DNA of 64,000 bases. Source: Aggregatilineales bacterium (GTDB taxonomy: Bacteria > Chloroflexota > Anaerolineae > Aggregatilineales > UBA2796). The stretch spans positions 213,361-277,360 of the forward strand of contig CBDFFR010000004.1 in assembly GCA_965246845.1 (NCBI GenBank), read 5' to 3'. Of this stretch, positions 12,561-52,039 are shown piece by piece; position 1 is the stretch's first letter; each line of letters starts with the position of its first letter. The notes under the pieces were generated by a model, which ran no database searches, had not been told where the DNA came from, and worked only from the letters and a program-made list of their open reading frames with translations. A program made the position numbers and the translations under genes.

Positions 12561-12601
12561 TGAACCTGAATTTACCTGACACAAGCAACGCTCCAAATCG
12601 G

Positions 12602-12660
12602 CTTCAACCCGGATTGTTCCTGGATACCCGGATTGAAGTCGGCTTCAACCCGGTTTGAAG
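12602..12660. repeat. Palindromic TCAACCCGG-type repeats (parC-like)
   Basis: cttcaacccgg (12602-12612), atacccggattgaag (12624-12638) and the near-perfect palindrome cttcaacccggtttgaag (12643-12660). The same motif family occurs at 46495-46546. Confidence 0.55.
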
Positions 12661-12765
12661 TTTCTGTACCCAATCTGGACTGTCTCTGGACGATTGCGCT
12701 TTGCGTCGTCACCTGCACTGAGGCATAGATCATGTCCAGTTCAGTGATCAGGTACGGCAAACGAA

Positions 12766-14816: not shown

Positions 14817-14855
14817 TCAGCTTGTATATTGCAACGAGATGCATGGAATTAGAGA

Positions 14856-16205: not shown

Positions 16206-16403
16206 TCTTTGGACTCAATCTTCGACTTGCATACTTGCGCCAAATCGATCACAATTCATTTCAAGCGAACGCCGCAGGTGCTGACAACACCGACGGCGCT
16301 CTGATCGAAGCACTACTGAGACTAGCGCAACGACTGCTCAGACTCTAACAGGTCGGGCGGCCTTGTGCTACCCGTACACACGACCTGCACAGGAGTCTGA
16401 CAC

Positions 16404-18416
16404 ATGGCCCGCCGCACCTCTCCCCAACCAGAGCGCAAGATTGCACTCGGCTACATCCGCAATTCATACACCCGCAACAAGACCGATACCGACAGTCCGG
16501 ACCGTCAGCGTGCCAACATTGAGGCTGTAGCTGCTCGCAAGGGTTACGTAGTCGAATGGTACACCGACACCGAAGGCCATAAATCAGGACGGTACGAGAA
16601 GAACCGACCCGGTTGGCTGGCGCTCAAGGACCGCATCGGCGACCCTGATGTGATTGCCATTATCGCCAATGACCTGTCGCGCTTGCACCGTAAACTCTCG
16701 CGCCTGAGTGACCTGCTCGATCTTGTAGACGAACATAAAATGGAGCTGATGCTGGCCGCACCGGGACGGGAGCTGGACACCTCCACGCCGATTGGCCGCA
16801 CGATTGCGCAGTTCATCGCGCTGCAAGATGAGGCATACTCCATCGACATTTCTGTACGCTCGACCGACTTGGCAATATACCGCCGCAAGCTGGGCAAGGT
16901 CAACGGCCAAGTGCCATTCGGCACGATGCGCGATGCAGAAGGATACCTGACTGCCGACGTGGAGGGTGCATGGACGTTGCCGGATGGCACATGGGTAACA
17001 GGCACACAGGAGAACCGACCGGAAGGCGCAACTGACTTCCGCTCGTACTATCGTTGTGCCAAGCGGATGCTCATCCTGTATGCTCGTGGCAACATCGGCT
17101 ACGAGAAAGTTGCCTATCGGCTGAACGAGTCCGCTTGGCTGTTCAGTGACCGCAAGGGTATCCCGCGATTGATTACCAGTGACGATGTGCGGCGGGTGGT
17201 CGCCAACTGGCCGGAGTTCGGTGGCGCGATGCTGGAAAAGAAGGCCAAAACGCGCAGCAAGGACCGCTCCACCCGTTTGGGGACAGACGGCATTTACTTC
17301 AACCCGGCACGAGCGGTCATGCCCATCAAGCTGCTGGTCAGGGTCGGCAACATGCTTAAGGAACGTGCCTTCGACGCTCCCGATAACGGGGTGGTCAGGG
17401 CGGCTCGTGATTACGCACTGAACAGGATTACCTACTGCGCTCACTGCGAGAAATTGGCTGCCGCGCAAAACAACCCAAAACTGCGCACGACGCTCAGTGG
17501 CAATCAGCAGAACGACAAGCTGCGCTATCGTCACAAAGGCGGTGTGAAATGCGGTTGCACCAACCGCTCTGTACCGCTTGCGGTGTACGAACATGATTTC
17601 GGGCGATTGCTCACACTACTCACTATTGCGGACGACAAGCTGAACCTGCTGACTGAACTGAGTATCCAGATGCAGAAAGGCCGTGCCGGGATCGCACAGG
17701 ACGCCGACATCGAGAAGGAAAAGCAAGAAGCAATTGAACTATGCCACCGCCGCATAGACGCCGCAGTCCACCTCTACGGTGATGGGCGCATCAGCCGCGA
17801 GGAATACCTGCGGCGCGTAGACAAAAACGAGCGCGAGATCGCGCATTGGGAGTCGCGCACGACGGATACTCAAAAAGCGGCGATGGACTTGGCATTGGTG
17901 GTGAACGCGGTCAACCAGATTGTGCGGGTGTGGGATAGCAGCAACGAAAAAGCCAAGCAGGACTTCGTTCGCGTCCTGTTCACATCCATCACCTACGACC
18001 TGGACACCCGCCGCATCGTCGACTTCAAGCTGAAACCGTGGGCTGACCAGTTCCTTGTGTTACGCGCAAACTTGTATGTCGATGAAAGCCGCAAAGAGCA
18101 AGAAAACCCGATGGTTGACGCAGAAAATAAAAATGCCCCACACCGTAAAGGCATGGAGCAGGCTTTGCCCCTATCGGGTCGCGGTGCGTATCCTAGATTA
18201 TTCCACGCTCAATTCGCTGTAAATCCGCACATCAAACCTCGCGCTCCACGCCCCAAACCACCTGAGTCGCCCGAAAAGCAAGTTCTTCGCGTGAAAGCCA
18301 AGTTGCTTCGCAAACAGGCCTATAGCTATCCTGAGATTGCAAAGCATCTCGGCATTTCACTTGGTGCAGCATGGGCGCTAATCAATAAACCCTTTGATAA
18401 GCGCAGTGACATATAA
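16404..18416 (+). CDS. Large serine recombinase with C-terminal HTH
   Basis: LGYIRNSYTRN...SPDRQ...IIANDLSRLHRK resolvase domain. Zinc-ribbon region YCAHCEK...KCGCTNRS, a coiled-coil region, and C-terminal HTH YPEIAKHLGISLGAAWALIN. Confidence 0.8.
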   Translation: MARRTSPQPERKIALGYIRNSYTRNKTDTDSPDRQRANIEAVAARKGYVVEWYTDTEGHKSGRYEKNRPGWLALKDRIGDPDVIAIIANDLSRLHRKLSRLSDLLDLVDEHKMELMLAAPGRELDTSTPIGRTIAQFIALQDEAYSIDISVRSTDLAIYRRKLGKVNGQVPFGTMRDAEGYLTADVEGAWTLPDGTWVTGTQENRPEGATDFRSYYRCAKRMLILYARGNIGYEKVAYRLNESAWLFSDRKGIPRLITSDDVRRVVANWPEFGGAMLEKKAKTRSKDRSTRLGTDGIYFNPARAVMPIKLLVRVGNMLKERAFDAPDNGVVRAARDYALNRITYCAHCEKLAAAQNNPKLRTTLSGNQQNDKLRYRHKGGVKCGCTNRSVPLAVYEHDFGRLLTLLTIADDKLNLLTELSIQMQKGRAGIAQDADIEKEKQEAIELCHRRIDAAVHLYGDGRISREEYLRRVDKNEREIAHWESRTTDTQKAAMDLALVVNAVNQIVRVWDSSNEKAKQDFVRVLFTSITYDLDTRRIVDFKLKPWADQFLVLRANLYVDESRKEQENPMVDAENKNAPHRKGMEQALPLSGRGAYPRLFHAQFAVNPHIKPRAPRPKPPESPEKQVLRVKAKLLRKQAYSYPEIAKHLGISLGAAWALINKPFDKRSDI

Positions 18417-33663: not shown

Positions 33664-36600
33664 TCCTCGTTGTTTTCGATTGCTGCCAAAGTTTCTGTCA
33701 TCACGCCCGCCGTCCCCTCCACCAGCGCGATCTCCGCCTCCGTCAACCCATAGGCCGTATAGACCGCCGCGTTCAACTCCGCTTCCAGCTTCGACAGCCG
33801 CGCCGCATCGTGCGCCGCCGCGAGGCACGCACGCGCGAGGTCTGCGATTTGCGCGCGGAGTGGGTCGGGTGGGTTGGGGATGGGGAGTTGTTCGACATAT
33901 TGAGTAAAGAAGCGCAAGTATCCGCCTCTTATTTTCTGATCCGACAAATTACGATAGAGCCATTCAACAACGGTTGAATTTAACACGCCTAAAACGTAAA
34001 AATCAGCAATTGGTAGGAAGTAAACAGTATTCGCGCAAAATGTACCTTGTTCATCTATAACAAAACGAAAGTCATTCGCAATGTCTGGATATACTATTTT
34101 GGGCATGTCAAATTGATGGTAAATGCCCATTTGTGGTTGTTGAAGCTCATACCAAGCGTGATTTGCACTGGTGGCTCGTGCCTCCAACTGTGGCTTGAAA
34201 CGTCGCAGGTGTTCTTCTATTGCAGGGTAAGCTATGATGTTCAACCCTCTTTTAGCGAAAATCAAATAACTACCTTGATGACCAATCTTCCAGCGCTTAA
34301 TGTCCTTCCCGACGACAAACGGCTTAATAACTTCCGCGCTCTTCGAGTCGGCGGCGATGAGTTCCGCGCGTTTGTCGCCATCAATGACGAAAGCCTCATT
34401 TAATCCTGTAACTACGCCACGAAATATTTTTCCATCGACGTAAGTTTTAAGTGGCGCTCCTAAATGCTTGATCTTTTCGAGCAACGTAGCATTTCGCTCG
34501 TTGGTGAGCGTCCATTGGGAGCCATTTAGCGCAGTTTGCGGCAGTGATTGGCCTGTTAATTTTATAACGGCACGTAAATCCATATCATCGCGCCAATCTT
34601 CAATTTTCGTGAAGTGTGTTATGTCACCTCGTTGTTTGTGTAGCACCAATACGAGTGGATAGGTTGTCGCGTCTTTGAACACAGGCGCATCATCGAAATC
34701 TGTCAACTGCTGAACGTGAAATTGCGCCAAGTATTTACGCAAATTCGCGCCGTATCCACCTTTGATGAACTTATTCGGGCTGATAAATGCGAGTGTTCCA
34801 CCATCGCGGAGAAGTTGAATTGCACGCGCATAGAAATAGACGTAAAGATCGGCGCGCGCGGAGAACACTTCGGGGTAGGTTTTCTCTAGTTCGGCACGTA
34901 TGCCCTTAAATTTATCCATGCTTACGTAAGGCGGGTTGGCGACCACAATATCGAAGCCGCCGCGAGCCGCGAAAACCGTGTGGAAGTGCAGGCGGTAGAG
35001 GAAGAAGGGGAGCGGCTTCGTCAGGTCGCGCATCTGCGCTTCGATTTCGCCGAGGCGGGCATAGCGGACGGCTGCGGAGTCGAGGGTGCGTTTATCCTTC
35101 GCGGAGAGGACGCCGTTTTGCTGACCGCTTTTCTTTCCATAGATATTGACCTGCTCTTTGGCGGCGTCAATCTTCACGGCGAGGGCGTTGAGGGCGATCT
35201 CGCGTTCGCGGATGACAATTTCGGCGCGCAGTTCGCGGCGTTCATCGGGCGCGGCACGGAAGAAACGGCGGTGCAGCGTATCGAAGTCCTCACGCGAGCG
35301 CTGCACGGCCTTTTCACTCTCAAAGAGCGCCATTTTTCCCTGCACGGCGTCGCCGATCAGGTTTTGCTGGACGAGGGCTTGCGGGTCGGCGGCGAAGAGC
35401 GATTCGGAGCCAGCGGTGAGGATCGACTCGCCATCCAGCGTTTCGATCAGGCTGTCGCCAACCATCAGCTTGTATTCGAGGTTGGGGAGCGGGCGGGCTT
35501 GTTCGAGGGTCTGATCGACGACGAGGGCGAGCCACAGGCGAAGCTGCGCGACCTCGACGGCTTCCGGCTTGAGGTCCACGCCATAGAGCGTGTCGCGGAT
35601 GATGGCTTCCTTCCAATCGGCAACCTGCGCGGGCGTGACGGCGACTCCGTTGGCGAGGGCGCAGGCACGGCGCAGGCGCAGAATTTCGGTCATCATACCG
35701 ATCAGGAAGCTGCCGGAGCCGACGGCGGGGTCGAGGACGGTGAGGGTATCGAGGGCGGCGGAGATGCGGTCGGCTTCGGCGGGGGTCAGCGCGGTGGGTT
35801 GCTCCGCATCGAAGAGGGCTTGCGCACGTTCGCGGGGAACATCGGCGCGGGTCGCGAGGTAGCCGGCGAGCGCTTCCTGACACATATAGGCGACGATCAC
35901 GCGCGGGGTGTAGAAGGAGCCAGATTGCCCGCGATCCTGCGCCTGGAGCTGGTTCTCGAAGACCTTGCCCAACATTTCGGGGTCCACCGCGACATCGAGT
36001 TCGAGGGGCGTGTCTTCACTGACGGTGAAGTTGTAGCGGTTGAGGAAGGCGAGAATGCCCGTGTCGCCCATCGGGTCGAAGAGCGAGTCCGGGAGGATGA
36101 GCGTCCCGGCGGGGTCGCGGGCGGGGTCGAAGAGACCTCCATTGAGGTATGGGATTGTTTCCCAGCCGCGCGTCCATGAGGGCAAGGCGCGGCGGTCGGG
36201 CGGGGTGTTCATCGTCTCGAAGAAGACCGGGGCGAGGACCTCCGTATAATAGTGGAAGGTCTCGACGTTCGGCGGGGTGTTATCCGCGTCGTGGCGCAAC
36301 ATGCAGAGGCGGTATTGTTCGGTGAGGAAGCGCTGCCCGCCCGCAAGCCAGCCCTTGCGCTGGAGGAAGTAGAGGAACATCAGGCGTCCGAGGAGGCGTT
36401 GGGCGAAGGCGCGCAGCTTGTCGGCTTCGTAGAATTCGCGAACGCCGGGGTTGTACTTTCGGGCGGCTTCGATGACGGCGCGGAAGAACTCGCTGTACTG
36501 GCGGTCGAACTTGCGGGTGAGGGCAGTCACGCTGAAGGCGTCGCGTTGCGCATCGTAGACCTGGATGCCGCCCCGGTTCCATGCGGCGAGGGTGCTCAGG

Positions 36601-37019
36601 GTATCGACATCGTGGCGGGTCGCGTCGGTGGTGACGAGTTTGAGTTTGTTGAGGCGCAAGCTGGATTTGGTGGCGGAGCCTGCGAAACGCGGGTCAATGA
36701 AGACGACTTCGCGGTAATCAGCGGTGACGACGAGCAGACAGGTTCCGCGACTGAGCAGGTTATAGGCGATGCCGCGCAGGTGGGATGGGCGCGGATCGCG
36801 GGTTTCGAGCAGGTAAATGGTGTGCAGGTCGCGTTTGGCAAGGATGTACAGCTTCGCGATGTCAGCGCGTTCGGGGGCGGTGAAGTCGAAGGCGTCCAGA
36901 CCGTCGGCCTCGAAAGGGTCTGCGTCACCGGGTTGGTAGCCGAGGCGCTCAAAGAGCGTGACGACATCGGCGGCGGTGTGGAGCGCGAGGTGAGCGAAGG
37001 TGATCGAGTCGTTGGGCAT
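33660..37019 (-). CDS. Large N6-adenine DNA methyltransferase, Eco57I/PglX/DrmMI-like, with no obvious nuclease motif
   Basis: SAM motif VLDPAVGSGSFL. Catalytic motif DIVVANPPYVSM. N-terminal region ...RLMFLYFLQRKGWL... is typical of the type IIG/BREX-PglX-like family. C-terminal TRD-like region. Confidence 0.8.
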   Translation of the reverse strand: MPNDSITFAHLALHTAADVVTLFERLGYQPGDADPFEADGLDAFDFTAPERADIAKLYILAKRDLHTIYLLETRDPRPSHLRGIAYNLLSRGTCLLVVTADYREVVFIDPRFAGSATKSSLRLNKLKLVTTDATRHDVDTLSTLAAWNRGGIQVYDAQRDAFSVTALTRKFDRQYSEFFRAVIEAARKYNPGVREFYEADKLRAFAQRLLGRLMFLYFLQRKGWLAGGQRFLTEQYRLCMLRHDADNTPPNVETFHYYTEVLAPVFFETMNTPPDRRALPSWTRGWETIPYLNGGLFDPARDPAGTLILPDSLFDPMGDTGILAFLNRYNFTVSEDTPLELDVAVDPEMLGKVFENQLQAQDRGQSGSFYTPRVIVAYMCQEALAGYLATRADVPRERAQALFDAEQPTALTPAEADRISAALDTLTVLDPAVGSGSFLIGMMTEILRLRRACALANGVAVTPAQVADWKEAIIRDTLYGVDLKPEAVEVAQLRLWLALVVDQTLEQARPLPNLEYKLMVGDSLIETLDGESILTAGSESLFAADPQALVQQNLIGDAVQGKMALFESEKAVQRSREDFDTLHRRFFRAAPDERRELRAEIVIREREIALNALAVKIDAAKEQVNIYGKKSGQQNGVLSAKDKRTLDSAAVRYARLGEIEAQMRDLTKPLPFFLYRLHFHTVFAARGGFDIVVANPPYVSMDKFKGIRAELEKTYPEVFSARADLYVYFYARAIQLLRDGGTLAFISPNKFIKGGYGANLRKYLAQFHVQQLTDFDDAPVFKDATTYPLVLVLHKQRGDITHFTKIEDWRDDMDLRAVIKLTGQSLPQTALNGSQWTLTNERNATLLEKIKHLGAPLKTYVDGKIFRGVVTGLNEAFVIDGDKRAELIAADSKSAEVIKPFVVGKDIKRWKIGHQGSYLIFAKRGLNIIAYPAIEEHLRRFKPQLEARATSANHAWYELQQPQMGIYHQFDMPKIVYPDIANDFRFVIDEQGTFCANTVYFLPIADFYVLGVLNSTVVEWLYRNLSDQKIRGGYLRFFTQYVEQLPIPNPPDPLRAQIADLARACLAAAHDAARLSKLEAELNAAVYTAYGLTEAEIALVEGTAGVMTETLAAIENNEE

Positions 37020-37169
37020 GGTGTGCTTCGGAGAATATTTGGTGGCGGTAGTTTACCGCGTTCGGCAGGGGCATGTGACTGAGTTGGGGAATCGTTATGA
37101 GTTTAATACGACAGGTGAGCGCAGGTACACATCGCACGCCATAAAATAGGGACAAAACGCGAGTGGAAA

Positions 37170-37919
37170 TTGATGGCATCCGAAACAAGATTTGGCATTC
37201 TACGAAATGTGCTGCGCGCATTCGGGCTTCCGCAAGACGCCGTGGATGATGTTGTGAACTGGATTGTGGACCTGCTCGCGGGTAAGAGCGAATCTGCTGG
37301 GCAACAGTCGCCGGAGTTTCCGTATCATTTGCGTCCGGGGCTGCTGTCGCCTGCGGAGCTGTGTTTCTATGAGACGTTGAAGTTGGCCGTCGATGAGCGC
37401 GCGGTGGTGAATGCGAAGGTCGGCCTGGGTGACATCTTCATGGTCAAAAGCGACGATCAGAGCCGTTACCGTATTTACACAAACAAAATCGACCGCAAGC
37501 ACGTCGATTTTCTGCTGTGTGACCCGAAAACCATGCGCCCGCTGGTGGGCATCGAACTGGATGATAAGAGCCATCAGCGGGCAGATCGGCAAGCGCGCGA
37601 TGAATTCATTGACAAGGTCTATCAGGCTGCGGGACTTCCCATATTGCATGTTCCCGCGAAGCGGAGCTATGAAGCAGGGGAGGTGGCTGCACAGATTGCA
37701 TCCTACTTGAGTGCTGCACCTGTTTCCCTCGTCCAAGTGCCTCCGGTCCGAGCGGAGTTACCTTCCATCTCAGTGCCAACACCGCAAGGGTCGCCACGTT
37801 GTCCCAAATGCGGCGGGGAGATGGTCCTGCGGACGGCCAAGAGCGGCGCGAATGCGGGTGGGCAGTTTTGGGGCTGCGCGAGTTATCCGGGCTGCCGTTC
37901 GATGCTGCCGTACCGGTGA
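37170..37919 (+). CDS. DUF2726 (endonuclease-like) protein with C-terminal topoisomerase-type zinc ribbon
   Basis: LLSPAELCFYETLKLAV...KHVDFLLCDPKTMRPLVGIELDDKSH (DUF2726 pattern). CPKCGGEMVLRTAKSGANAGGQFWGCASYPGC (C4 zinc ribbon). Confidence 0.65.
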   Translation: MMASETRFGILRNVLRAFGLPQDAVDDVVNWIVDLLAGKSESAGQQSPEFPYHLRPGLLSPAELCFYETLKLAVDERAVVNAKVGLGDIFMVKSDDQSRYRIYTNKIDRKHVDFLLCDPKTMRPLVGIELDDKSHQRADRQARDEFIDKVYQAAGLPILHVPAKRSYEAGEVAAQIASYLSAAPVSLVQVPPVRAELPSISVPTPQGSPRCPKCGGEMVLRTAKSGANAGGQFWGCASYPGCRSMLPYR

Positions 37920-38057
37920 AGTGAGTATGCCTGTTTAGCATATTGAACATGGCTAATGTAATCATACCTCGACCAATCGGAAGACGAAGGGGTCTTCTAA
38001 ATTTCTTCCACATCACAACTTCAACACAAATCTCGTTGTACCAATGACAAAGTCGGT

Positions 38058-40100
38058 ATGGTTTGTCACAATGAGCCGCATCGTCCAACACTGAACGTAC
38101 ATAGAGAAAATGCGATGATAACTGGATATTCGGCAACGATTGGCGAAAAACGCCTTGAGCGCTTGCTACAACAGCTTCCTCAAACTGAATTTATAGCGTT
38201 TCCACAACCGCGTATTGATCGCAATGAGCAAACAAGCACAAACCCGGATTTTTTGCTAGTGTGGAAGAGCAAAGGCATCCTCGCTATTGAAGTTAAAGAC
38301 TGGCTTGAAATCACAGGTGGCGACTCACGAAAGGTCACTATTCAACAGCGCTCAGGGGAAAAGCGCTCCACAACAAACCCCTTCCAGACGGCGAGAAGCT
38401 ATGCCCTTGATCTCAAGGAGCGCCTAGAAACATATCGTGATTTCATGACTGAAATTCGCGGCAGTGAAAAGTTGTCTTTTCCATGTGAGGGGCTGGTCGT
38501 TCTATCTGCATTCTCGATGAGTACCGTATCTGGGTTGGAAGATGCAGGTATTTTCCCTGAGAATGCTGTGCTATCTGGAGATGATCTGCTGAATGTAGAA
38601 GCGCTTGTCAAGGCGCTAAACCGGATACGATGGACCTTCCCGCTCTCCCGCCAAATCGCAGATAGCACAATCGAAGCGTTCGAGAAATACCTTAATCTTG
38701 TGCGCGTCGATGTTCCTGTTAAATTACGGGGTGATACTGTACTTGAGACAAAGGGGAATTTAACACCTGACCAAGAGCGGGTACTTTGGCTTCCATTTGA
38801 GAAGATTCGTGCGGGTCACAACATCCACCTGTTACGTGGCCCTGTCGGATGCGGAAAAACCGTCGTGTTAAGTAAGCGAGCTATGCGTTGTGCTGAAGCA
38901 CGACCGGATTGGAAGGTGCTGGTCACATCGTTTCATATCGACATTGCTGATGATCTTCGGCGTAGAATTCCGCAACCCACAATTGATGTGAAGAAGTTCT
39001 ACGCAATTTGTGAAGAAATCCTGGGTGAGAACTATCCGCGAGTAAAAGATTATCGCGGCGAGTTGGGTCCGTTGGCTATTCGGGATTGGACCAAGCAGAT
39101 AGGAGATGAAATTAAAGGGCTTGGACTGACACCGGATTTTATTGCCAGTGAAATTGGTCGTCGGAAGGATGCGCAGCTTTATGATATAGCGGAATACAGT
39201 GAGGATTTGAAGCGACGCCACAAATGGTTGAACGAGGATCAACGTGAGTGGCTTAATGAAATATTCTTTGAACTTTACCAAAGCTATCAGAAGGAAGAAG
39301 CCGCGCATGGTAACGATGCACGCGATTGGGAGGACTTGATCGTGTTGACCAAAGATGCACTGCGAAATCACAAAATGCGGCAGTTATACGACGCCATTTT
39401 CATTGATGAGGCGCAGGATTTTAGCCCTATGATGATGGAAGTCATAAAACGGTTGCTGGTTCCAGGTGGTTACCTGTTTCTCACTGACGATCCCGTTCAA
39501 TGTTTGTGGCGTCGGTTTAACTGGGCAGATCGTAACGTCAAACCAAATAGAACCGATACGTTGGGGACACCGTTGCGAACTACAATCTCAGTTTTCAATC
39601 TCGCTCAGTGTTTGCTTGATGAACACCCAATGATGCGCGCGGAGAATGATACCGACTTGTATCCGGCAACTCCTGGCGAGCAAGTAGAAACGGGCGAAAT
39701 GCCGCAATTAAAACAATTTGATACAGAGGACAGTGAATGTGAGTTCATCGACAAGACACTGCAATCCCTCCTCGACAATGGCATTGACGCAGCACAGATT
39801 GCTGTTTTCTTTCCAAGATACAATGGGTTTAAGGAACGTTGGAAAGAAAGGGATGTTTCGTTTCAGCAGGTTTTCGTGAGTACATTCGGCCGCATCAAAG
39901 GTCTGGAATTTGAAGTGGTGATCATCCCTGAACTCAATCAAATGTTTAAGTTGATGCCAGCCAGAGATCGTGACAATATGGTACTTTCTCTGCGACAGTT
40001 GTTTGTAGCGATCACTCGCGCCAGGAAGCAGGTGTATCTCTCCTACTGTGGCACTCTGCCAGAACAACTCGCCTGCCTACGCTATTTTTGTGTCGAATGA
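38058..40100 (+). CDS. NERD-domain + UvrD/AAA_30-like SF1 helicase (Nhi-like architecture)
   Basis: NERD-like NPDFLLVWKSKGILAIEVKDW. Walker A LRGPVGCGKTVV, Walker B IFIDEAQDF, and C-terminal GLEFEVVIIPE...LFVAITRARKQVYLSY. Alternative ATG at 38115. Confidence 0.7.
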   Translation: MVCHNEPHRPTLNVHRENAMITGYSATIGEKRLERLLQQLPQTEFIAFPQPRIDRNEQTSTNPDFLLVWKSKGILAIEVKDWLEITGGDSRKVTIQQRSGEKRSTTNPFQTARSYALDLKERLETYRDFMTEIRGSEKLSFPCEGLVVLSAFSMSTVSGLEDAGIFPENAVLSGDDLLNVEALVKALNRIRWTFPLSRQIADSTIEAFEKYLNLVRVDVPVKLRGDTVLETKGNLTPDQERVLWLPFEKIRAGHNIHLLRGPVGCGKTVVLSKRAMRCAEARPDWKVLVTSFHIDIADDLRRRIPQPTIDVKKFYAICEEILGENYPRVKDYRGELGPLAIRDWTKQIGDEIKGLGLTPDFIASEIGRRKDAQLYDIAEYSEDLKRRHKWLNEDQREWLNEIFFELYQSYQKEEAAHGNDARDWEDLIVLTKDALRNHKMRQLYDAIFIDEAQDFSPMMMEVIKRLLVPGGYLFLTDDPVQCLWRRFNWADRNVKPNRTDTLGTPLRTTISVFNLAQCLLDEHPMMRAENDTDLYPATPGEQVETGEMPQLKQFDTEDSECEFIDKTLQSLLDNGIDAAQIAVFFPRYNGFKERWKERDVSFQQVFVSTFGRIKGLEFEVVIIPELNQMFKLMPARDRDNMVLSLRQLFVAITRARKQVYLSYCGTLPEQLACLRYFCVE

Positions 40101-40460
40101 GCCATAGCCTCACTCACTCTTATCGGCAAGTGTTGTACCACGATAGTCGCGCTAATCCTCTTGTTCGTAAGCATTATGGTCAGATACTCCATTGTGTTTT
40201 CGTTCCATGTCTGTAGTGCGACCACAAACGCCTCTTTGTGACCCATCGTGCAAGCATGTTTGTAATCGGCGTAGAGCTTCTTAGCTGAGACAAAGCCCAT
40301 TGGCAGGTTACAACGCCAGAGTGTCGGGGATGGGGCGCTCCGGTGGGTCCTGTTTGCGTCGCAGTATTTTCAACGTCAGACAGTTTTCGACGTCCAGCCT
40401 CTGTAATCTTATATGGTTCGCCCTTCTCATGTAGTGCAACGTCCTATAGCGCACCCACTG
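40082..40460 (-). pseudogene. Relic of the 3' end of a primase/helicase gene (paralog of 42027..44942) with an internal deletion
   Basis: The 72-aa ORF GFVSAKKLYADYKHACTMGHKEAFVVALQTWN... parallels NGFVSTEKLYGGYKHACAMGHKLPFLTALHNQN... of the full gene. DNA at 40200-40330 aligns by eye to 42170-42300, and 40370-40460 aligns to 42740-42830. Confidence 0.7.
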
Positions 40461-40463
40461 CCC

Positions 40464-41978
40464 TCAACCTACGTACAAATATGCCGCAGCACTTGACCGT
40501 ATTCCCGCATCGTACCCACCCAAAATCAGTACATCACCCGTCGGGAGCGTCGTCGCTGTCATGTAATACAGCGTCTCGGCTATCTTGCCCGACGCTATGG
40601 TAAACTCCTTTGCCGCGGGATCATATACTTCGACCTGACTCCCACTACCCACCACCAGCACCCGATCATTGTACAGTGTCACCACCGAATCAATGATCTT
40701 ATACCGTCCCTCGCGCAGGGCCGGTGCTTCCCGAAATGTACCCGCTGCTGTATCGTAAATTTCAGCGCTCTTGAACGCCCCCACCGCCCCGTACTCCTCG
40801 ACATCCGCACCGCCTACAACCAGCACGTCGCCATTGGGCAGCGGCCTCGCAGCGTGCTTGTGCCGTCCGGTAAGCAGTGCCCCCGTTTTGGTGAACGTTC
40901 TGCGCGTCTGGTCGTACAGTTCGGCGCTGGCCGTCACCTGTGTGCCATTGCGTCCGCCCACGATCAGAATCTGACCATTAAACAACCATGTGGCGGTGAA
41001 TGAGGCGCGCGGCTCGGTCATGTCTCCAATTGCGGTAAATGTGCGCTTCCGGTAATCGTAGATTTCAGTGCTCGTCAGTGATTGACGATAGCCGTTGGTG
41101 TAGCCACCCATGACCAACACATTCCCGTCATCCAGCAAAATCGCGACGAACCCTTCGCGCGGCGCAGTCAGTGATCCCACAGCAGTAAAGGTGCGTGTTG
41201 CCGGGTCGTAAAGTTCAGCGCTGGAGAGACGCCCACTTTTACCATACCCGCCCATAATCAGCACCGACGCATCATTCAGTTCTACTGCCACATGGCTTAC
41301 CCGCGCATCCGTCATTCTGGTTTCCAGAGCCGTAAATTCGCGCTTCTGCACGTCGTAAAGTTCAGCGCTGTCGAAAATGTTGCCTTCGCCCGCCATGCCG
41401 CCTGTGATCAGCACCGTGCCGTCACGGAGCATAGTCGCGGTATGCCCAGCGCGCGGCGTGGTCATCGTTGTGGCAAGTTTTTCTACCCGTCCGGGCGTCT
41501 GGTCGGCCACACGGAAGACCACTTCACCGGAGTCTTTGCCGTGCTGCACAATCATCCGCCAACAGCCCGCTTTCAGGAAAATAAAGCCCGTTCCATATTC
41601 TGCGCCAGGACGCTCCCAGGTAGAGCTACCGTGCGCTTCCGGTCCCCATCTCGGCAGAACTTCCGTGCCGTCCTCGTGCCGCGCCACAATGCTGAAATTG
41701 CCGAACCCCGTCATGCGCCAGACAATTTTCACCTCATGTCCTGTTTGAAACGGCTTTGGCGGGGTGAACAGGAGCGCCCATAGCTCTTGCGTGGCCGAGG
41801 TCCCTCTTACTTCGGGAAAATTCGTAATGCCGCCCTGAATGGGGGTCGCCACACACGCCGCTTGCAAGGTCTCCGCCCGCACTGCACAACCGCTTGGCAG
41901 AGTCGCACATAAGCACACCATCATACACATCACGTACCGCAGCATTAGCCATTCTCCACTATCTGGATGGTCAGGCAA
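40464..41978 (-). CDS. Secreted/lipoprotein Kelch-repeat protein
   Basis: N-terminal hydrophobic segment with Cys (LCATLPSGCA). At least 6 repeats of the type GHTATMLRDGTVLITGG...SAELYD. Confidence 0.65.
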   Translation of the reverse strand: MPDHPDSGEWLMLRYVMCMMVCLCATLPSGCAVRAETLQAACVATPIQGGITNFPEVRGTSATQELWALLFTPPKPFQTGHEVKIVWRMTGFGNFSIVARHEDGTEVLPRWGPEAHGSSTWERPGAEYGTGFIFLKAGCWRMIVQHGKDSGEVVFRVADQTPGRVEKLATTMTTPRAGHTATMLRDGTVLITGGMAGEGNIFDSAELYDVQKREFTALETRMTDARVSHVAVELNDASVLIMGGYGKSGRLSSAELYDPATRTFTAVGSLTAPREGFVAILLDDGNVLVMGGYTNGYRQSLTSTEIYDYRKRTFTAIGDMTEPRASFTATWLFNGQILIVGGRNGTQVTASAELYDQTRRTFTKTGALLTGRHKHAARPLPNGDVLVVGGADVEEYGAVGAFKSAEIYDTAAGTFREAPALREGRYKIIDSVVTLYNDRVLVVGSGSQVEVYDPAAKEFTIASGKIAETLYYMTATTLPTGDVLILGGYDAGIRSSAAAYLYVG

Positions 41979-42026
41979 TTGTATCCAGCCCCTACGTAGG
42001 CTTCTACAACGCTAAAGGTCACTGCG

Positions 42027-44942
42027 TTACTGTGTCATGGGAATTGGCTTGGCTTCGCGTGGTAAGTGCTGAATGACCACGTACTCGCGGATGTGTTTGC
42101 CGGCGACCAGCTCCTTGAGGTAGTCAATCGCTTTCGTGTTCTGGTTGTGTAATGCGGTCAGGAACGGCAACTTATGACCCATCGCGCAAGCATGTTTATA
42201 GCCGCCGTAGAGCTTCTCGGTAGAGACAAAACCGTTCGGCAGGTAGAGTGCCAAAATATCGGGGATGGGGCGCTCTGGCGGGTCTTGCTCGCACCGCAGC
42301 ACTTCCTCGAAGTAGGGCGTGAAGGCATCACCTAACGCAATCTCAAATGCGGTGCGCAGGTGGCGTGGGACAATCTCTGCAATCTTGTACAAGTCCATAC
42401 CATCCGAGGTTGGATATTGGACCTGGACCTGTTCTGCGTAGCGCGCAATGTCTTGTACCGTCATCGGCGGCAGGGATCGTTCTTCGGCTTGTACATCTTC
42501 GGCATGTCTAATCGGAGGGCTTTGGATATTAGACATCGGGCCTGAATGAGCATCAGTAGCGTCATTCGGCTGGTTGTCTGTCTCATTGGCTGCTGTGTTG
42601 TCTAATGTCAGGTCCGTTCCACACCCATAGGTGTGTGGAACTGGACTAGACATTGGACATGACTCCGGTAGTGTCCAAATGAACGGGGTTGGACATGCTT
42701 TAGACAGGTTGGACTTGACGCTTACGGCTGCACTTTCGGCGTTAGACAGCTTTAGACGTCCGGCTTCGGTGATCTTGTAGGGGTCGCCCTTTTCGTGTGG
42801 CGCGACGTAGCCAAGTCTAATCAGCGCGTTGAGACTGTAATACTTGCTCGCACGCTTTGTACCCGGCGGGAGGATTTCGTCCAACTGGCTGGACTTGATA
42901 CCAGACATGGCGAACATCTCTAACCCGACCGCACGAAGGATTTCTAGTTGCAGTGAGGAGAGCTTGTCGGCTGTCGTCTGCACGCGCTTCTCGGCAGGGA
43001 TGAGGACCGGGACAGGTGCTTCTTCGCCGATGTCGACAAGGACAGGTTTCAAGTACAAGGTATTGAACTCTGCCGAGTCCTTGACCTTTGCACAGGAGAC
43101 GGCGATCAGGTCATCTTCTTTCGAGACCTCCATCATCACGTCCATACCACCGCGTATAACAGTCGAGCCGCGCTCACGTCCGCCTGCGGCATTGGTGTGG
43201 TGGACGGCAACGACGGTTGCGCCTGTCTCGCGACGTACGCAGTCGAGTGAGTCCAGAATGAAGCCCATATCCTTCTGGTTGTTCTCATCCGCGCCGAGGC
43301 TGCACCGCGAAAGCGTATCGAAGACGACGAGCGCAGGTTGCTTGCTCTGGATGGTGGAGATGAACTGCTGGACTGCTTGCGCCTCGAAGAGCTGCACAGG
43401 TTCACGCCAGATGAAGAGTTCACCGCCTGCCTGTTTACGAAACTGCTGCCACGCCTTCTTGCGGCTGCGATAGCCGCGCAGTCCTTCGGCAACCACATAG
43501 ATCACGGTTTTGCCCGTCGCGGCGAGCGTCTGTGCCATATCGAAGACAACCTGCGTTTTGCCTGTGCTTGGAGCGCCATAGACTTCTACAAGGCTGTCCT
43601 CCGGCAGGTAATCATGGATGAGCCAGCGTATCGGCGGTAGGCTATCGAGGTCATCGACGTGCATCAGCATGTCGGAAGTTACAAGCTTGGGTTGCGCTGC
43701 GGGTTGGTTGGATGCAGCGCACTGGTCGCTCGTTACATTTAGTGGCTCAGAGGTGGATGCTTTCACCACGCGAAGCGGCGGCAGCGCTGGTCGCGTCTTC
43801 GGTTGCACATTGAGCATGACCCCTGCAAAGGTCGCGGCCTCCTGTAATGCCTGCCTGAACATCGTGGTATCGTGTTTGTTCCATGACGCGCCAAAGATGC
43901 AGTAGCCCACCAGATCGAGCGTGTCCCCGCCTGCGTGACCCGTGTGGTGATACCAGATGCCCTTCTCGATATTGATGAGCAGCCCGCCGTTTCCCGGTAG
44001 CCGATACTCTTTCCCGCTCTGCACAGCTTGCACACCGAAGTGCTGCTCGGCATAACGCACCATGTCGAAATGAGATTTGATGTCGTCTAGCACATGGCGG
44101 TCTGCTGACTGAGGTGACGCCGCATTGGACGGCAGTTTCGACGGTTGTGGCAGTTCTACTTGCGGAACAGGCAGTAGCCTTTGAAGGGTCTCAACCGAAA
44201 CAGGCGTCGGATTATCCGGTACTTCCAAAATCTGAGAACGACGGTGCGGACGCTCAGGTGTCGAGTCGCCTTTGCACGCCAGCGTGCCGTACAGTTTAAT
44301 GAGATGACTTGCGCCGATCATGCCCGTATCGACCTTCACCCGCTCGTTGCTGAACGTCGAGTCGAGCAACGCCAAAAACGTCTTGATGAGCGCTGTTGCA
44401 GCATCATCGTTCGGCCAGTCGATTGGGATGAGCAGGTGCGCTCCGTTGCCGGAGTCAGCAAGGAGTGCATGAATGCCATGCTGCGCCAGCCACTCGCGGC
44501 AGGCTTTCGCCCGCTCAATGGCTGCCTGATGCTCTTCCTCAGAAGATGAGATGCCCGCCGGACGCATCGGGTCAAAGTCGATGAACAACCAGCGACGGCG
44601 CGGTACGTCCTTGTCTGCCGAGGTCTGTTTGGCGTACTCCTTGATGCGGTTCACGCTTCGGGCGAGCAGTGCGGGCTGTACCGGGTTGATGGTGATGTAA
44701 ATTCCGTCGGCGCGACCCTCATAGCTCGCTGCGGCTTTGGCAAGCGCTTCAAAGTCGTTGAAATACCCGCTGTCGGTCCGCTTACCCTGGATGCCGGGAA
44801 TGCGCAGTTCCAGCGTATCACCCGGTTGGAACATGACCGACAGGGTACGGCGCATCAGCGCGATAGCTTCCGCGCGTGAGGCGGCTTGTGTTTTATGAAT
44901 AGTCGATACGGTAGAAGTCACATCCGCCTCCGGGCAACACAA
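42027..44942 (-). CDS. Bifunctional AEP primase-polymerase + RecA/DnaB-like (AAA_25) helicase replication protein with wHTH
   Basis: AEP motifs LFIDFDP (DxD) and ADSGNGAHLL (sGxGxH). Walker A YGAPSTGKTQV and Walker B LVVFDTLS. wHTH-like LNALIRLGYVAPHEKGDPYKITEAGRLKL. Confidence 0.7.
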   Translation of the reverse strand: MCCPEADVTSTVSTIHKTQAASRAEAIALMRRTLSVMFQPGDTLELRIPGIQGKRTDSGYFNDFEALAKAAASYEGRADGIYITINPVQPALLARSVNRIKEYAKQTSADKDVPRRRWLFIDFDPMRPAGISSSEEEHQAAIERAKACREWLAQHGIHALLADSGNGAHLLIPIDWPNDDAATALIKTFLALLDSTFSNERVKVDTGMIGASHLIKLYGTLACKGDSTPERPHRRSQILEVPDNPTPVSVETLQRLLPVPQVELPQPSKLPSNAASPQSADRHVLDDIKSHFDMVRYAEQHFGVQAVQSGKEYRLPGNGGLLINIEKGIWYHHTGHAGGDTLDLVGYCIFGASWNKHDTTMFRQALQEAATFAGVMLNVQPKTRPALPPLRVVKASTSEPLNVTSDQCAASNQPAAQPKLVTSDMLMHVDDLDSLPPIRWLIHDYLPEDSLVEVYGAPSTGKTQVVFDMAQTLAATGKTVIYVVAEGLRGYRSRKKAWQQFRKQAGGELFIWREPVQLFEAQAVQQFISTIQSKQPALVVFDTLSRCSLGADENNQKDMGFILDSLDCVRRETGATVVAVHHTNAAGGRERGSTVIRGGMDVMMEVSKEDDLIAVSCAKVKDSAEFNTLYLKPVLVDIGEEAPVPVLIPAEKRVQTTADKLSSLQLEILRAVGLEMFAMSGIKSSQLDEILPPGTKRASKYYSLNALIRLGYVAPHEKGDPYKITEAGRLKLSNAESAAVSVKSNLSKACPTPFIWTLPESCPMSSPVPHTYGCGTDLTLDNTAANETDNQPNDATDAHSGPMSNIQSPPIRHAEDVQAEERSLPPMTVQDIARYAEQVQVQYPTSDGMDLYKIAEIVPRHLRTAFEIALGDAFTPYFEEVLRCEQDPPERPIPDILALYLPNGFVSTEKLYGGYKHACAMGHKLPFLTALHNQNTKAIDYLKELVAGKHIREYVVIQHLPREAKPIPMTQ
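42601..42760. repeat. Iteron-like array plus hairpin embedded in the primase/helicase gene
   Basis: T(A/G)GAC(A/T) / TTGGACATG units (ggactagacattggacatgac, gtgtccaaatg, gttggacatgc, tttagacaggttggacttgac, gttagacagctttagacgtcc). Hairpin ttccacac/gtgtggaa at 42617-42640. 42601-42665 aligns to 12486-12550. Confidence 0.65.
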
Positions 44943-45102
44943 AGCTCGGTCGAGACAAACTTGTTCTCAACAAGACTGGAAACATTCTGTTGTGAGCAAA
45001 CGCGAGGCTATGTGTCTCGCGTTCACCTGCTTATGGCAAACGCAGCTTCGCTACGGCGGTCCGCGCGACTGTGGCTTGGTGTTCATCACTAATCTCCCTC
45101 AT

Positions 45103-45387
45103 CTAAAAACCGAACATCTCAGCGGATTGTTCAACGATGCGGCTGGTCGCCTCCGGCTCGGCAGGACTGCTGATGTTCGGACTTTTACCTGTGCGCTTGT
45201 CCGGTCGGGGCATACTGCTGATGGTTCGTCCGGGTGCTGGATGTGTATCACGAAAAAGGTAGGAGACCAGCGCCTGCCGGATGACCTCTCCGGCACGACG
45301 GTGACGCAACAAATCAGCCAGCGCGTCGTAGAGCGCTGCCTCCTGCGGGTTGTCCATGTTCAGCGAGAACTCCACCCGGCGGTTCAT
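45103..45387 (-). CDS. ParR-like small DNA-binding partition adaptor (putative RHH)
   Basis: 94-aa ORF overlapping the 3' end of parM by 4 nt. The position and size are those of parR. N-terminal beta-strand/helix pattern RRVEFSLNMDNPQEAALYDALADL. Confidence 0.45.
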   Translation of the reverse strand: MNRRVEFSLNMDNPQEAALYDALADLLRHRRAGEVIRQALVSYLFRDTHPAPGRTISSMPRPDKRTGKSPNISSPAEPEATSRIVEQSAEMFGF

Positions 45388-46457
45388 GAGGCTGACGCAG
45401 ACTCGCGCTCCCGACGAACCAGAAACCCGAATGCCCCTTCTACATTCCCGCGCCGGGTGTCGGCGGAAAGCACCCAGTGGCTCGCCTTGCCGTTGTTCAG
45501 ATAGGGCTGCAGCAGCGCTGCGCCACCCCCGCCGAGGATGACCGTCCGAATGTTCTTGCCGCGCAGTGTGCTGTTCACGAAGTTCAGGATGCGCTCGGCA
45601 AGCGCGGAGAGTTCCAGATGAACGCTTTGTGTCAGGTCATAGGTTTGGTTGTTGACGATGATCTGCTCGCTGCCCAGCGCCTCATCGACCTGCCACACAT
45701 CCAGGCCGTATGCGCCTTGCCGCCGCAGGTCTTCCAGCACCGCCGCTGCGACTGTCCCCATGCCGATGTCCGCTGACTGCGCGCCACCAACCACATACAC
45801 ACCATCCTGCATCAGCACCACGTCGGTTGTGTAGTAGCCGATGTCTACAATTGCGGTACTGCCGCGTGTGTAGCGCTCGTCCATCGTGCCGTCCTCAAGG
45901 AACGCCGCCAACCAGAACGTGCCGAGTCCTTCCGGGATAATGATCAGGTCGGCGGGTTGAACTTGTGCATACAACGACGCCCCGTTCAGCCCGTGTATCT
46001 GATACTCCCCTTGCAGCAGGTCACGAACTTCTTTGTCTTTCTGGACGTTGAACTCGCCGACCGGGATGGAAATCACTCCACGCGGGTACAGCACGCCGTC
46101 GCCTGTCTTGTGGCCGAAGGTGCGCCACAACGCGCTTGCAAAGAGCAGCCGATAGCGGTCCGAGGTATACCGGATACGACTAGTCAGGGCAGTCGGCTCG
46201 GTATCACAGAGCAAGCGCACGTCGTCACCAAAGACGTACTTTGTATTATCGATCTGGATGACCAGCCGATCTGCAACGCTGACCAGTGTATTCCGTCGAC
46301 TGAGGACACCATAGATAGAACGGTATTCGGCAGACACATCGTAGCTGCGCAGCTTGCAGAAACCATTGCCCAGGTCGAACGAGTACAGCGGCTTGCAGTT
46401 CTCGTCAGGATTCACGATACGCACTTCCTGTTGTATCACTTTGGCTTTCTTTGGCAT
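45384..46457 (-). CDS. parM: ParM/StbA-type actin-like segregation ATPase
   Basis: Phosphate-1 FDLGNGFCK, connect PEGLG, phosphate-2 VDIGYYTTDV, adenosine VILGGGGAA. Confidence 0.75.
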   Translation of the reverse strand: MPKKAKVIQQEVRIVNPDENCKPLYSFDLGNGFCKLRSYDVSAEYRSIYGVLSRRNTLVSVADRLVIQIDNTKYVFGDDVRLLCDTEPTALTSRIRYTSDRYRLLFASALWRTFGHKTGDGVLYPRGVISIPVGEFNVQKDKEVRDLLQGEYQIHGLNGASLYAQVQPADLIIIPEGLGTFWLAAFLEDGTMDERYTRGSTAIVDIGYYTTDVVLMQDGVYVVGGAQSADIGMGTVAAAVLEDLRRQGAYGLDVWQVDEALGSEQIIVNNQTYDLTQSVHLELSALAERILNFVNSTLRGKNIRTVILGGGGAALLQPYLNNGKASHWVLSADTRRGNVEGAFGFLVRRERESASAS

Positions 46458-46460
46458 GAT

Positions 46461-46907
46461 CTAACGCTCCTTTTTGTGCTTCGGGACCTTGCTGGAACCG
46501 GGCTGAACCCGGTTAGCGCGTGTCTGTCCGGGTTCAACCCGGGTTGTGGCCGGGTAGTCCGCAAGCGAGATCGTGTTACGGTCGAGCACGTCGGCCAGCT
46601 TCGCGTTCGAGAGCAAGTGCGCCCGGCACGCTGCTTTGAACTTTTCATCCAGCCGCACGCACGTTTGCAAGCGGAAGCCTGCATCGTGGATCGCGGGTGC
46701 AGTTCGGCTGACGTACTCTTTCAGCTTGCCGCCGTTCTTGAAGCACGCAACCCGCAGCCGACCGATACTCGGCAGCACGACCGTGTCACCCGTTGCAGCT
46801 TCTTCTGCAACACTTTCGAGGTAGAATTCAACTGCTTGGCGGGCGTGTTCGCGTGTAAGACCGCGCACCTGCCGTGAGACGTGAATAATGCGCTCTGTGT
46901 GGTTCAT
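46461..46907 (-). CDS. HU/IHF-like DNA-binding protein with extended basic tail
   Basis: GLTREHARQAVEFYLESVAEEAATGDTVVLPSIGRLRVA resembles the HU fold N-terminus (helix-turn-helix body followed by beta arms). Confidence 0.5.
   Translation of the reverse strand: MNHTERIIHVSRQVRGLTREHARQAVEFYLESVAEEAATGDTVVLPSIGRLRVACFKNGGKLKEYVSRTAPAIHDAGFRLQTCVRLDEKFKAACRAHLLSNAKLADVLDRNTISLADYPATTRVEPGQTRANRVQPGSSKVPKHKKER
46495..46546. repeat. parC-like palindromes immediately upstream of parM
   Basis: ggaaccgggctgaacccggtt (46495-46515). gtccgggttcaacccgggttg contains the perfect palindrome caacccgggttg (46526-46546). Confidence 0.55.
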
Positions 46908-47383
46908 TTCTGCTCCGTCGGTGGTTCGATAAACGCCTGCCTGATGGCGTCCTCAAGTGTTTTGAGGTATGGCATTCCTGAGCGGTGCGCGAACGCCAGC
47001 GCGCGATCCCACGCCTCTTTGAATGAGGTCTGCTGTTTGGTGGTAGCATTCAGGATCGGGTTGAGCATCTGCCACATGAATGCGAGCGTGACCAGATCGT
47101 TCCACAACAATTCGGACTTTGTGGCGTCGATAGTCTCGCGCAAGCCACGCTGAAAGTGGCGGCGTGAGCCGATGATTTCCTCCTCGTTGTCGATGTACAG
47201 CCGGATCGCCTCGCGCACCAAATCTGGTACGGTCGTTTGGGGTCCGCGCTGGTCGCGGAGCTGCTCCAGTTTGCGTTGTATTTCTAAGCTCACGTACACA
47301 TTCAGCCGTGCATCAAATCGTTTGTGTTCGACCACTGTGGTTGATCCTCTCTTGCTACTCGCGTGCGACTCCCATGTATGCAT
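46904..47383 (-). CDS. Ribbon-helix-helix (CopG-like) domain protein
   Basis: Probable start MHTWES at 47383. RLNVYVSLEIQRKLEQLRD fits an RHH beta-strand/helix. The upstream part of the listed ORF (to 47704) covers the hairpin cluster and looks non-coding. Confidence 0.45.
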   Translation of the reverse strand: MHTWESHASSKRGSTTVVEHKRFDARLNVYVSLEIQRKLEQLRDQRGPQTTVPDLVREAIRLYIDNEEEIIGSRRHFQRGLRETIDATKSELLWNDLVTLAFMWQMLNPILNATTKQQTSFKEAWDRALAFAHRSGMPYLKTLEDAIRQAFIEPPTEQK

Positions 47384-47524
47384 TTTGTGATCTGGAATGC
47401 CCGGAAAATCCGGTGATTTACTCAATTCGACACCTGACACCTCACCCCTATGAATAGGTCCAGCCCGCGTCCGCTGTCCCGCGCGTATTGGCATGGGGGA
47501 CCTTGCGCGCAGTCGCGCCGATGT

Positions 47525-52039: not shown

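Follow-up and report, generated by a model that had tools for sequence, protein, structure and literature searches.

What kind of unit brings together a replication protein, an actin-type partition system, a nicking protein and a large serine recombinase, and what placed it between two blocks of defence genes? The question is raised by a 64,000-nucleotide stretch of an Aggregatilineales genome (Chloroflexota, Anaerolineae; assembly GCA_965246845.1), hereafter the window, which corresponds to C4:213361-277360 of genome G000 (5.56 Mb in 14 contigs, 97% complete). A sequence-only reading had described positions 42027-52039 of the window as an integrated plasmid-like element. In the reading that we favour, and to which we give a probability of about three in four, positions 40443-51801 make up an integrative plasmid-like element of 11.4 kb, which forms one unit of a stack at tRNA-Glu and belongs to a family that our searches found only in Anaerolineae. 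Window positions are given bare; C4, C8, C12 and C14 are contigs of G000, and Gnnn and Lnnn designate other genomes and loci. Genes were called with Pfam and NCBIfam profiles on the open reading frames (ORFs) of the window, and within-genome paralogues were identified by BLAST. No RNA families were found in an Rfam search of the window.

The replication, partition, nicking and integration modules of an integrated plasmid-like element are all present, as the sequence-only reading had it, and every gene that it named is an intact ORF. Nor is the gene set a patchwork without synteny, since it has syntenic counterparts in paralogous elements on C8 and C12, in G002:C18 and at 62 relaxase-module loci of Anaerolineae.

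Borders of the element and the tRNA-Glu core

The borders of the element were located by means of a short repeated sequence. The tRNA-Glu(UUC) gene, which is single-copy in G000, lies at C4 c[285235,285307], 7.9 kb past the right end of the window and 20 kb to the right of the element, and its last 13 nt read TGCCCCTATCGGG on the + strand. All copies of this core lie on one strand (Table 1); two of them are exact and within the window, compared with 0.07 expected when one mismatch is allowed. The three best-resolved copies are the points at which homology between paired elements stops. The predicted attachment core of the recombinase is thus the last 13 nt of tRNA-Glu(UUC), and it lies within the 3' part of the recombinase's own gene. 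On the left, the core relic at 40443-49 directly borders what remains of another primase-helicase gene, from codon ~713 onward. Homology to a degraded sister copy of the element begins at 40461, and a 12/13 core (TTCCCCTATCGGG) is found at the equivalent place of the sister, C4:208715, with the sister beginning 11 nt past it.

The element therefore comprises 11.36 kb, with the Kelch gene inside and the last 238 nt of the recombinase ORF outside. The gene set proposed for 42027-52039 stands, but the borders have to be moved, on the left to about 40443 so that the Kelch gene is included and on the right to the attachment (att) core at 51789-51801.

As the core returns at the borders of four or five neighbouring elements, the region as a whole is a tandem stack of serine-recombinase elements grown from tRNA-Glu. 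Each newcomer would insert at the regenerated tRNA gene, and older units would be pushed outward. This bears on two further suggestions of the sequence-only reading. The element had been thought to have possibly split a defence island, but the flanking defence blocks are cargo of its stack-mates (DISARM in the next element; a methyltransferase (MTase), DUF2726 and NERD-UvrD genes in the decayed one). Likewise, defence islands had been considered as landing pads, and the landing pad is instead the 3' end of tRNA-Glu(UUC).

Table 1. Coordinates of the element, its genes and sites, the core copies and the units of the stack (HTH, helix-turn-helix; IS, insertion sequence; AF2, AlphaFold2)
Feature	Position	Strand	Description
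Left att core relic CCTATAG	40443..40449	+	7/13 nt, between Kelch stop and older neighbour's truncated primase gene
Kelch-repeat protein	40464..41978	-	Pfam Kelch_1/4/6; cargo, left end of element
Replication protein	42027..44942	-	971 aa; putative archaeo-eukaryotic primase (AEP)-type primase-polymerase, RepA/AAA_25 helicase, C-terminal domain
Iteron-like repeats	42500..42822	.	TAGACA / TGGACATG units and 9-bp hairpin, within replication-gene linker
ParR-like small protein	45103..45387	-	94 aa, ribbon-helix-helix (RHH)-like N-terminus, overlaps parM stop
ParM-type actin-like partition ATPase	45384..46457	-	Pfam ALP_N E 2e-12, MreB-like_C E 1.5e-18
HU/IHF-fold DNA-binding protein, basic tail	46461..46907	-	Family profile and AF2 topology
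parC-like palindromes	46487..46553	.	CCGGGTTCAACCCGG, four CCGGG-N5-CCCGG units upstream of parM; predicted centromere
Ribbon-helix-helix protein	46904..47383	-	Pfam RHH_1
165-bp stretch downstream of relaxase-like gene	47549..47713	.	85-91% identical in C8 and C12 paralogous elements
Putative relaxase-fold HUH nuclease	47714..48508	-	264 aa, unannotated family; invariant motifs and Foldseek
71-aa ORF	48505..48720	-	Upstream of relaxase-like gene, overlapping; no Pfam/NCBIfam match
Divergent control region	48721..48835	.	Inverted repeats GCGTATTGTAAAACGCA / TGCGTTTTATAATACGC
Putative Cro/C1-type HTH regulator	48836..49558	+	Weak HTH_26 match, E 0.019
GNAT acetyltransferase	49546..50040	+	Pfam Acetyltransf_1 E 3e-13
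Large serine recombinase ORF	50084-52039	+	651 aa; Resolvase, Zn_ribbon_recom, C-terminal HTH_7
Recombinase body	50084..51801	+	aa 1-572, ends at att core
Att core TGCCCCTATCGGG	51789..51801	+	Identical to tRNA-Glu(UUC) 3' end; element's right border
HTH tail, 79 codons	51802..52039	+	aa 573-651; in-frame fusion onto recombinase body
R0	C4:208715	+	12/13 match to tRNA-Glu core
R1	C4:211935	+	Exact core
R2	18166..18178	+	Exact core within recombinase 16404-18416; borders two older stack elements
R3	51789	+	Exact core
R4	tRNA-Glu(UUC) itself	+	Exact core
Stack unit 1	R0-R1		Degraded sister of plasmid-like element
Stack unit 2	R1-R2		Two serine recombinases, iteron and parC-like relics, an IS
Stack unit 3	R2-40442		Decayed element: detached recombinase tail at left end, then cargo, primase relic
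Stack unit 4	40443-R3		Plasmid-like element itself
Stack unit 5	R3-R4, 20.1 kb		HTH tail, IS3, broken second HTH gene, DISARM, iteron relics, second AB recombinase pair
Second primase-helicase gene, 3' third	40091..40442	-	Codon ~713 onward; truncated right end of older neighbour (unit 3)
IS3-family insertion	52072..53259	-	Just within next element; three 100% identical genome copies

Gene content and the putative relaxase-fold module

All eleven ORFs of the element are intact and free of frameshifts. The replication protein gave a Pfam match to AAA_25 (E 8e-30) and a weak one to LigD Prim-Pol (24 bits, with a cut-off of 27.4). The AEP motifs are legible in it as FIDFD, SGNGAH and VKVD (DxD, SGxGxH, hD). 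An archaeal plasmid protein shares 42% identity with its Prim-Pol domain, residues 371-693 are matched by plasmid proteins of the "helicase RepA family", and a 73% identical paralogue is encoded at C12:1299471-1302362. The iteron-like repeats within the gene are a candidate origin; homologous stretches occur in neighbouring recombinase-only elements, at 12304-12560 and C4:279731-279958. For ParM, an NCBIfam ParM match (E 3e-18) lay under the cut-off of the model, and an 86% identical homologue was found in G002:C18. The ParR-like protein is called from its position and an inspection of its sequence, with no match to Pfam or NCBIfam profiles, and the DNA of its ORF is conserved beside parM in G002:C18. 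The parC-like motif of the predicted centromere is repeated at 12595-12661 in a neighbouring element.

On its own, the sequence of the HU-like protein matched Pfam weakly and below the cut-off. A profile built from 14 members of the family matched solved HU proteins of the PDB (E 6e-7), and the AF2 model has the HU topology of helix-helix-beta arm-helix. The RHH ORF is open up to 47704, and its conservation begins near Met108. Over 47549..47713 the conservation equals that of the relaxase-like gene itself, and this stretch is one candidate for an origin of transfer (oriT); the corresponding part of the ORF 46904-47704 is probably non-coding. The inverted repeats of the divergent control region are candidate operators and/or a candidate oriT. 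The HTH regulator is called from its position, the HTH-like look of its sequence and the weak HTH_26 match; homologues of it lie between recombinase and relaxase in five related loci (L041, L061, L074, L079, L082). In the window, the regulator and GNAT genes (48836-50040) overlap by 13 nt. GNAT toxins are known, and the two genes could be a regulator/acetyltransferase addiction pair.

The relaxase-like protein had no match in Pfam, NCBIfam, PDB sequences or a PDB profile search, nor to any described MOB profile. Across 21 relaxase-like sequences, Y12, Y29 and then the triad H125...H141-x-H143 are invariant. The tyrosines are N-terminal to the three-His metal site, which is the arrangement of relaxases and not that of Rep proteins. 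Using Foldseek, we found that the top ten PDB matches to the AF2 model are all relaxases (NES, MobM, TraI), with modest scores (probability 0.97-0.99, E 1.7e-3 to 4e-2, template modelling score 0.35-0.49; model pLDDT 73). Motifs and modelled fold point to a relaxase-fold HUH nuclease, the family of which appears specific to Anaerolineae as far as searched.

This family was found at 62 loci, all in Anaerolineae metagenome-assembled genomes, and the synteny of the module was counted over them. An RHH gene stands beside the relaxase-like gene in 44/62 and an HU-like gene in 35/62, and the usual gene between these two encodes a Prim-Pol/DUF3987 primase-helicase. A tRNA gene lies 1.3-3.4 kb upstream in 13 of the 62 loci. 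At L041, for example, the order is tRNA, large serine recombinase (LSR) and XRE regulator, then relaxase, RHH, PrimPol and HU. The set of nickase, RHH protein, primase-helicase and HU-like protein is conserved, and the type of primase-helicase is exchanged. ParM is rare in the family, being seen in G002:C18 (ParM-HU-RHH-relaxase, followed by an LSR). The sister element on C12 carries ParA and ParB instead, and other sisters carry DnaC/IstB-like ATPases; the partition modules are interchangeable, ParMR or ParAB. An extrachromosomal phase may be a family trait, as the recurrent partition and replication modules suggest.

The following life cycle is consistent with this gene content. Once excised, the circle would use the iterons and the AEP primase/RepA helicase to replicate, and ParM, ParR and the parC-like repeats would see to its partition. 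The HUH, RHH and HU-like proteins would act together in the manner of a relaxosome, nicking the circle so that it could be transferred or copied by the rolling-circle mode.

The recombinase gene and the HTH tail fused to it

The ORF at 50084-52039 is predicted to encode a large serine recombinase acting on attP x attB. PF00239 Resolvase matched residues 22-177 (E 6.5e-10), PF13408 Zn_ribbon_recom was borderline (25.4 bits, with a cut-off of 25.3), and residues 348-499 showed weak similarity to CcrB in NCBIfam. No match to PF07508 "Recombinase" was obtained at E <= 0.01, and the sequence is divergent. We call the family that includes this enzyme K, and related recombinases, including the copy adjoining tRNA-Glu, B. 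In both families the core is translated, in one common frame, as LPLSG, and the ~79 codons beyond it specify an HTH. At C4:283473-285272, adjoining tRNA-Glu, the copy has 599 aa and its stop lies 7 codons past the core. No tail-coding DNA was found at the left ends of the plasmid-like element and its sister. For the DISARM element, an in-frame join of body and tail was read off from the shared frame and not built by splicing: LPLSG is the reading of the core in the neighbour's body as well as at the tail 51802-52039. Most likely, this tail is the detached tail of the DISARM element's recombinase, the body of which would be C4:283473-285272. Integration of a B-type element would part the C-terminal HTH domain from the recombinase and leave it at the element's opposite end. 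The annotated 651-aa integrase would accordingly be a fusion, in which the reading frame passes from the plasmid-like element's own recombinase body into the tail of its neighbour.

Paired elements and related loci were compared at the core. The two AB recombinase pairs (13095-14816 with 16404-18416, and C4:280521-282239 with C4:283473-285272) share 88-90% identity as far as the core's final base and are unrelated from there on. B-family recombinases occur in 47/151 genomes of the order. In 16 of 35 sampled loci, with B and K families taken together, an antisense tRNA is located between -14 and +139 nt relative to the point where the recombinase body ends, and it is tRNA-Glu in 15 of these 16. 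When the ends of B-family elements were joined in silico, an in-frame tail of the form ERN..I..RY..G.S...LA...S.QR..QI was restored in G385 (593 to 662 aa), G347 (602 to 681) and G034 (658 to 674), and not in G356; an in-frame HTH tail was obtained in 5/6 B-family elements with both ends identified. The C8 element (G000:C8:579841-601729; L003/L004) extends over 21.9 kb from tRNA-Arg(CCU) to a repeat that matches the 3' end of this tRNA at 13/14 positions. In the integrated state the recombinase has 622 aa, and end joining in silico yields an in-frame 686-aa ORF with an HTH end homologous to residues 573-651 of the window ORF.

In the K family, homologues end at about residues 560-575 against tRNA-Ala or tRNA-Glu (L041, L090, L092); that of L041 ends at residue 570 against tRNA-Ala, and two distant homologues abut tRNA-Glu(UUC). 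In G001, the similarity of a 70% identical K homologue breaks off precisely at the core. Circularization of a K-like 16.3-kb element in G172 added only 4 residues. For L041, L028, G007:C216, G021, G008 and G383, a search for the distal att repeat gave none.

Further loci display the same parts in other arrangements. The C8 element has the cleanest integration-split serine recombinase gene, with a second free-standing HTH paralogue 170 nt past the tail. On C14 (G000:C14:387628-460503), the 3' end of tRNA-Arg(ACG) is repeated over 16 nt at a distance of 72.8 kb from the gene. This repeat is part of a junction of recombinase fragment, core and tail, and the recombinase adjoining tRNA-Arg(ACG) is frameshifted. 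The metagenome contigs L130 and L135 encode an identical relaxase protein (P0001) and share DNA that is 97% identical, and they differ past the recombinase body: one reads body, core and tail, the tail in another frame (675 aa), and in the other a deletion fuses the body straight onto the HTH part (597 aa). At L057 and L064, tRNA-Glu (~8650-8740) is directly followed on the same strand by an HTH tail (~8740-8950) and then by the relaxase module. The recombinase gene would here read with the tRNA, since the tail follows it on the same strand, and its body would have to be sought at the element's other end.

A bolder idea is that the HTH is deliberately separable. The full enzyme would exist only on the circle, the integrated copy would be tail-less, and tails of neighbours could be grafted in frame, as at 50084-52039; the primase and ParMR of the plasmid-like element would in addition act as a helper on the iteron and parC relics of its neighbours. 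We consider this combined proposal doubtful. If true, it would provide a built-in directionality or a cross-talk switch among stacked elements.

Lifestyle, stack-mates and comparison with known systems

Several observations weigh against an integrative plasmid-like element with a recombinase tail borrowed from its neighbour. The left core is reduced to a 7-nt relic. DNA searches for an empty site in same-genus and same-family genomes gave none, these relatives being 65-80% identical and fragmented, and both flanks of the element are non-syntenic in them. A search of PLSDB gave domain-level matches to the primase-helicase only and none to the relaxase-like protein, and no related plasmid was found. 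VirD4, TrwB and VirB4 were not detected above noise in this 97%-complete genome, and the relaxase identity is drawn from fold and motifs only. As to the tail, the two K copies are most alike on either side of the core (90-98% identity), and G006 has a full-length homologue that ends in a similar tail, so that the tail could also be the element's own and attP intact. Contiguous body-tail junctions within stacks are in frame in just 5/10. In-frame fusion as a general rule was consequently rejected, and support for a split gene comes only from end joins within the same element. The 39-kb G002:C18 was considered as a free plasmid and was rejected, as its ends do not overlap and it is not evidently circular.

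Because the left core is decayed, the element may today be fixed or may move only along with a neighbour. Were it a fixed relic, it would descend from an old site-specific integration of which the left site has been lost, together with excision, replication and transfer. The 7 nt left of the core fit this, as do the surroundings (an IS3 and other decayed units), the lack of detectable conjugation machinery in the genome and an exact-protein look-up of ParM, which returned no identical record elsewhere. However, decay in G000 looks like the degraded sister at C4:208715-211947, whereas here all eleven ORFs are intact and the cis sites, iterons and parC-like repeats, are preserved; we consider a fixed relic unlikely. 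Alternatively, the mobile unit might be composite and the core at 51789 internal to it, the element moving either with the DISARM element (40443 to C4:285247, ~31.4 kb) or with the decayed unit to its left (18166-51801, 33.6 kb). Perfect cores are present at 18166 and at the tRNA, whereas that at 40443 is decayed. Moreover, the order of a Kelch/primase/K-recombinase unit, a tail and a two-recombinase unit is found twice (C4:208715-231538 and from 40443 onward), and the two-recombinase elements keep iteron and parC-like sites without primase or ParMR genes, which would make them need the proteins of the plasmid-like element. A circle from 40443 to the tRNA would, however, give the B recombinase a short end without HTH (~15 codons in the sister), unlike 5/6 resolved B elements, and the divergence of the paired copies (8-19%) is compatible with separate arrivals. 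A composite unit therefore seems quite unlikely to us.

The relaxase-fold protein might instead be a rolling-circle initiator or an element-internal nickase, in an element that cannot be mobilized by conjugation; we regard this as less likely than not. Neither a type IV coupling protein nor VirB4 was found in the genome or among the genes examined at three related loci, so that conjugative mobilization is unsupported; in addition, primase-helicase and HU-like genes invariably accompany the gene, and the protein matches no MOB profile. Against this, the order of tyrosines and His triad is that of relaxases and not of Rep proteins, the ten best structural matches are all conjugative or mobilization relaxases, and RHH and HU/IHF-type proteins are typical accessories of relaxosomes. 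Within the integrative plasmid-like element that we favour, the HUH protein could equally well serve in rolling-circle copying from the nick.

The other units of the stack bring their own genes. The degraded sister (C4:208741-212056) retains a Kelch gene (C4:208741-210237), 91% identical to that of the element and in the equivalent position, a primase fragment and a recombinase fragment (80%). Two sister two-recombinase elements, at 10134-18178 and C4:278555-285247 (window-equivalent 65195-71887), are 83-90% identical over three homologous blocks. Each encodes recombinases of 573 and ~600-670 aa and a 287-aa protein without family match and carries 5-6 copies of CATGTC[CT]AA iterons; parC-like repeats are present in the first, and both are without primase, ParMR and relaxase genes. 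These elements may be satellites or deletion derivatives of the plasmid-like element. As they hold iteron and parC-like repeats without the cognate genes, they could, speculatively, depend on its proteins in trans.

Cargo of the decayed unit 3 comprises sugar-uptake and glycosidase genes, SNF2-PLD, AbiU2, MTase, DUF2726 and NERD-UvrD. A block of its Eco57I/MmeI-type MTase, DUF2726-Zn-ribbon gene and primase-helicase 3' end (33660-40442) is duplicated at C12:523452-531178, 78-91% identical, without the NERD-UvrD gene and with an identical IS3 copy alongside. We also considered whether the Eco57I-type MTase (33660-37019) might be a DISARM methylase parted from its system by the insertion. Since the block with the primase relic recurs without DISARM (C12:523452-529057), the insertion is not read as a split of DISARM. 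In unit 5, the last gene reads into tRNA-Glu. The IS3 at 52072-53259 has broken up a small HTH gene, a paralogue of the recombinase tail. What is left of this gene, ...SELPADLAREFGILDRRVQNLL, lies at 53260-53350, and the disrupted second HTH copy parallels the left end of the C8 element.

What looked like a defence island can thereby be read as a history, that of a stack seeded at a single essential tRNA gene in which each unit carries its own cargo, such as DISARM, the MTase/NERD-helicase block and the sugar-uptake genes. To our knowledge, plasmids and conjugative elements of Anaerolineae are hardly described, and the relaxase-fold, RHH, primase-helicase and HU-like core documents an unannotated element family of this class. 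The tRNA-specific serine integrases with their defined short sites are possible candidates for genome-engineering tools. Several clean cases of an integration that removes the HTH domain from the integrase bear on an idea raised for DsiB in 2011, of which we know no test to date. We found no paper on tRNA-Glu-specific serine integrases with a detachable HTH or on this relaxase-RHH-primase-HU element family.

SXT integrates at prfC. Like SXT/R391 with srpMRC (PMC4489591), the element is integrated and has a ParM-like partition system, and SXT/R391 replicates as a transient plasmid-like circle. Unlike SXT/R391, a self-transmissible integrative and conjugative element of ~100 kb with a tyrosine integrase and a full type IV secretion system, it measures 11 kb, has no such secretion system, uses a serine recombinase and targets a tRNA. 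It shares with integrative and mobilizable elements (review PMC5704250) the combination of integrase and relaxase without a transfer apparatus; it differs from them in that its relaxase-fold protein is outside the described MOB families and no helper conjugative system was identified. A site within the recombinase gene, with integration altering or splitting the product, is also known from SSV-type archaeal tyrosine integrases (PMC8371274) and Mx8 IntP. Those cases differ in that the recombinase superfamily is another one, whereas here only the C-terminal HTH is detached and tandem neighbours can resupply a tail.

In tycheposons of Prochlorococcus, 910/937 of which use tyrosine recombinases and the remainder large serine recombinases (bioRxiv 10.1101/2020.12.28.424599), units are likewise tRNA-seeded, successive integrations push older units out and leave partial tRNA copies between them, and primase/helicase modules travel with cargo such as defence genes. 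The present element differs in its serine recombinase, in a ParMR/relaxase module that is undescribed there and in its phylum. The closest layout is that of the ssrA islands of Dehalococcoides (McMurdie et al. 2011, PMC3146451), which lie in tandem and in which the serine integrase gene dsiB overlaps attP/attL; their authors suggested that an entire dsiB might exist only in the circular form or where an adjoining unit contributes the 3' fragment. In contrast to those islands, the target here is tRNA-Glu(UUC) and not ssrA, and primase-helicase, ParMR, relaxase-fold and HU-like genes are present, whereas ssrA islands are described as non-replicating; furthermore, the tail detached in B-type relatives is a defined HTH domain. 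The two systems agree, as far as a comparison of layout goes, in a Chloroflexota host, a large serine recombinase, the 3' end of a small stable RNA as target and tandem units with direct repeats. In both, the serine integrase ORF runs across the att repeat and a second serine recombinase stands beside the integrase, here in the neighbouring two-recombinase elements.

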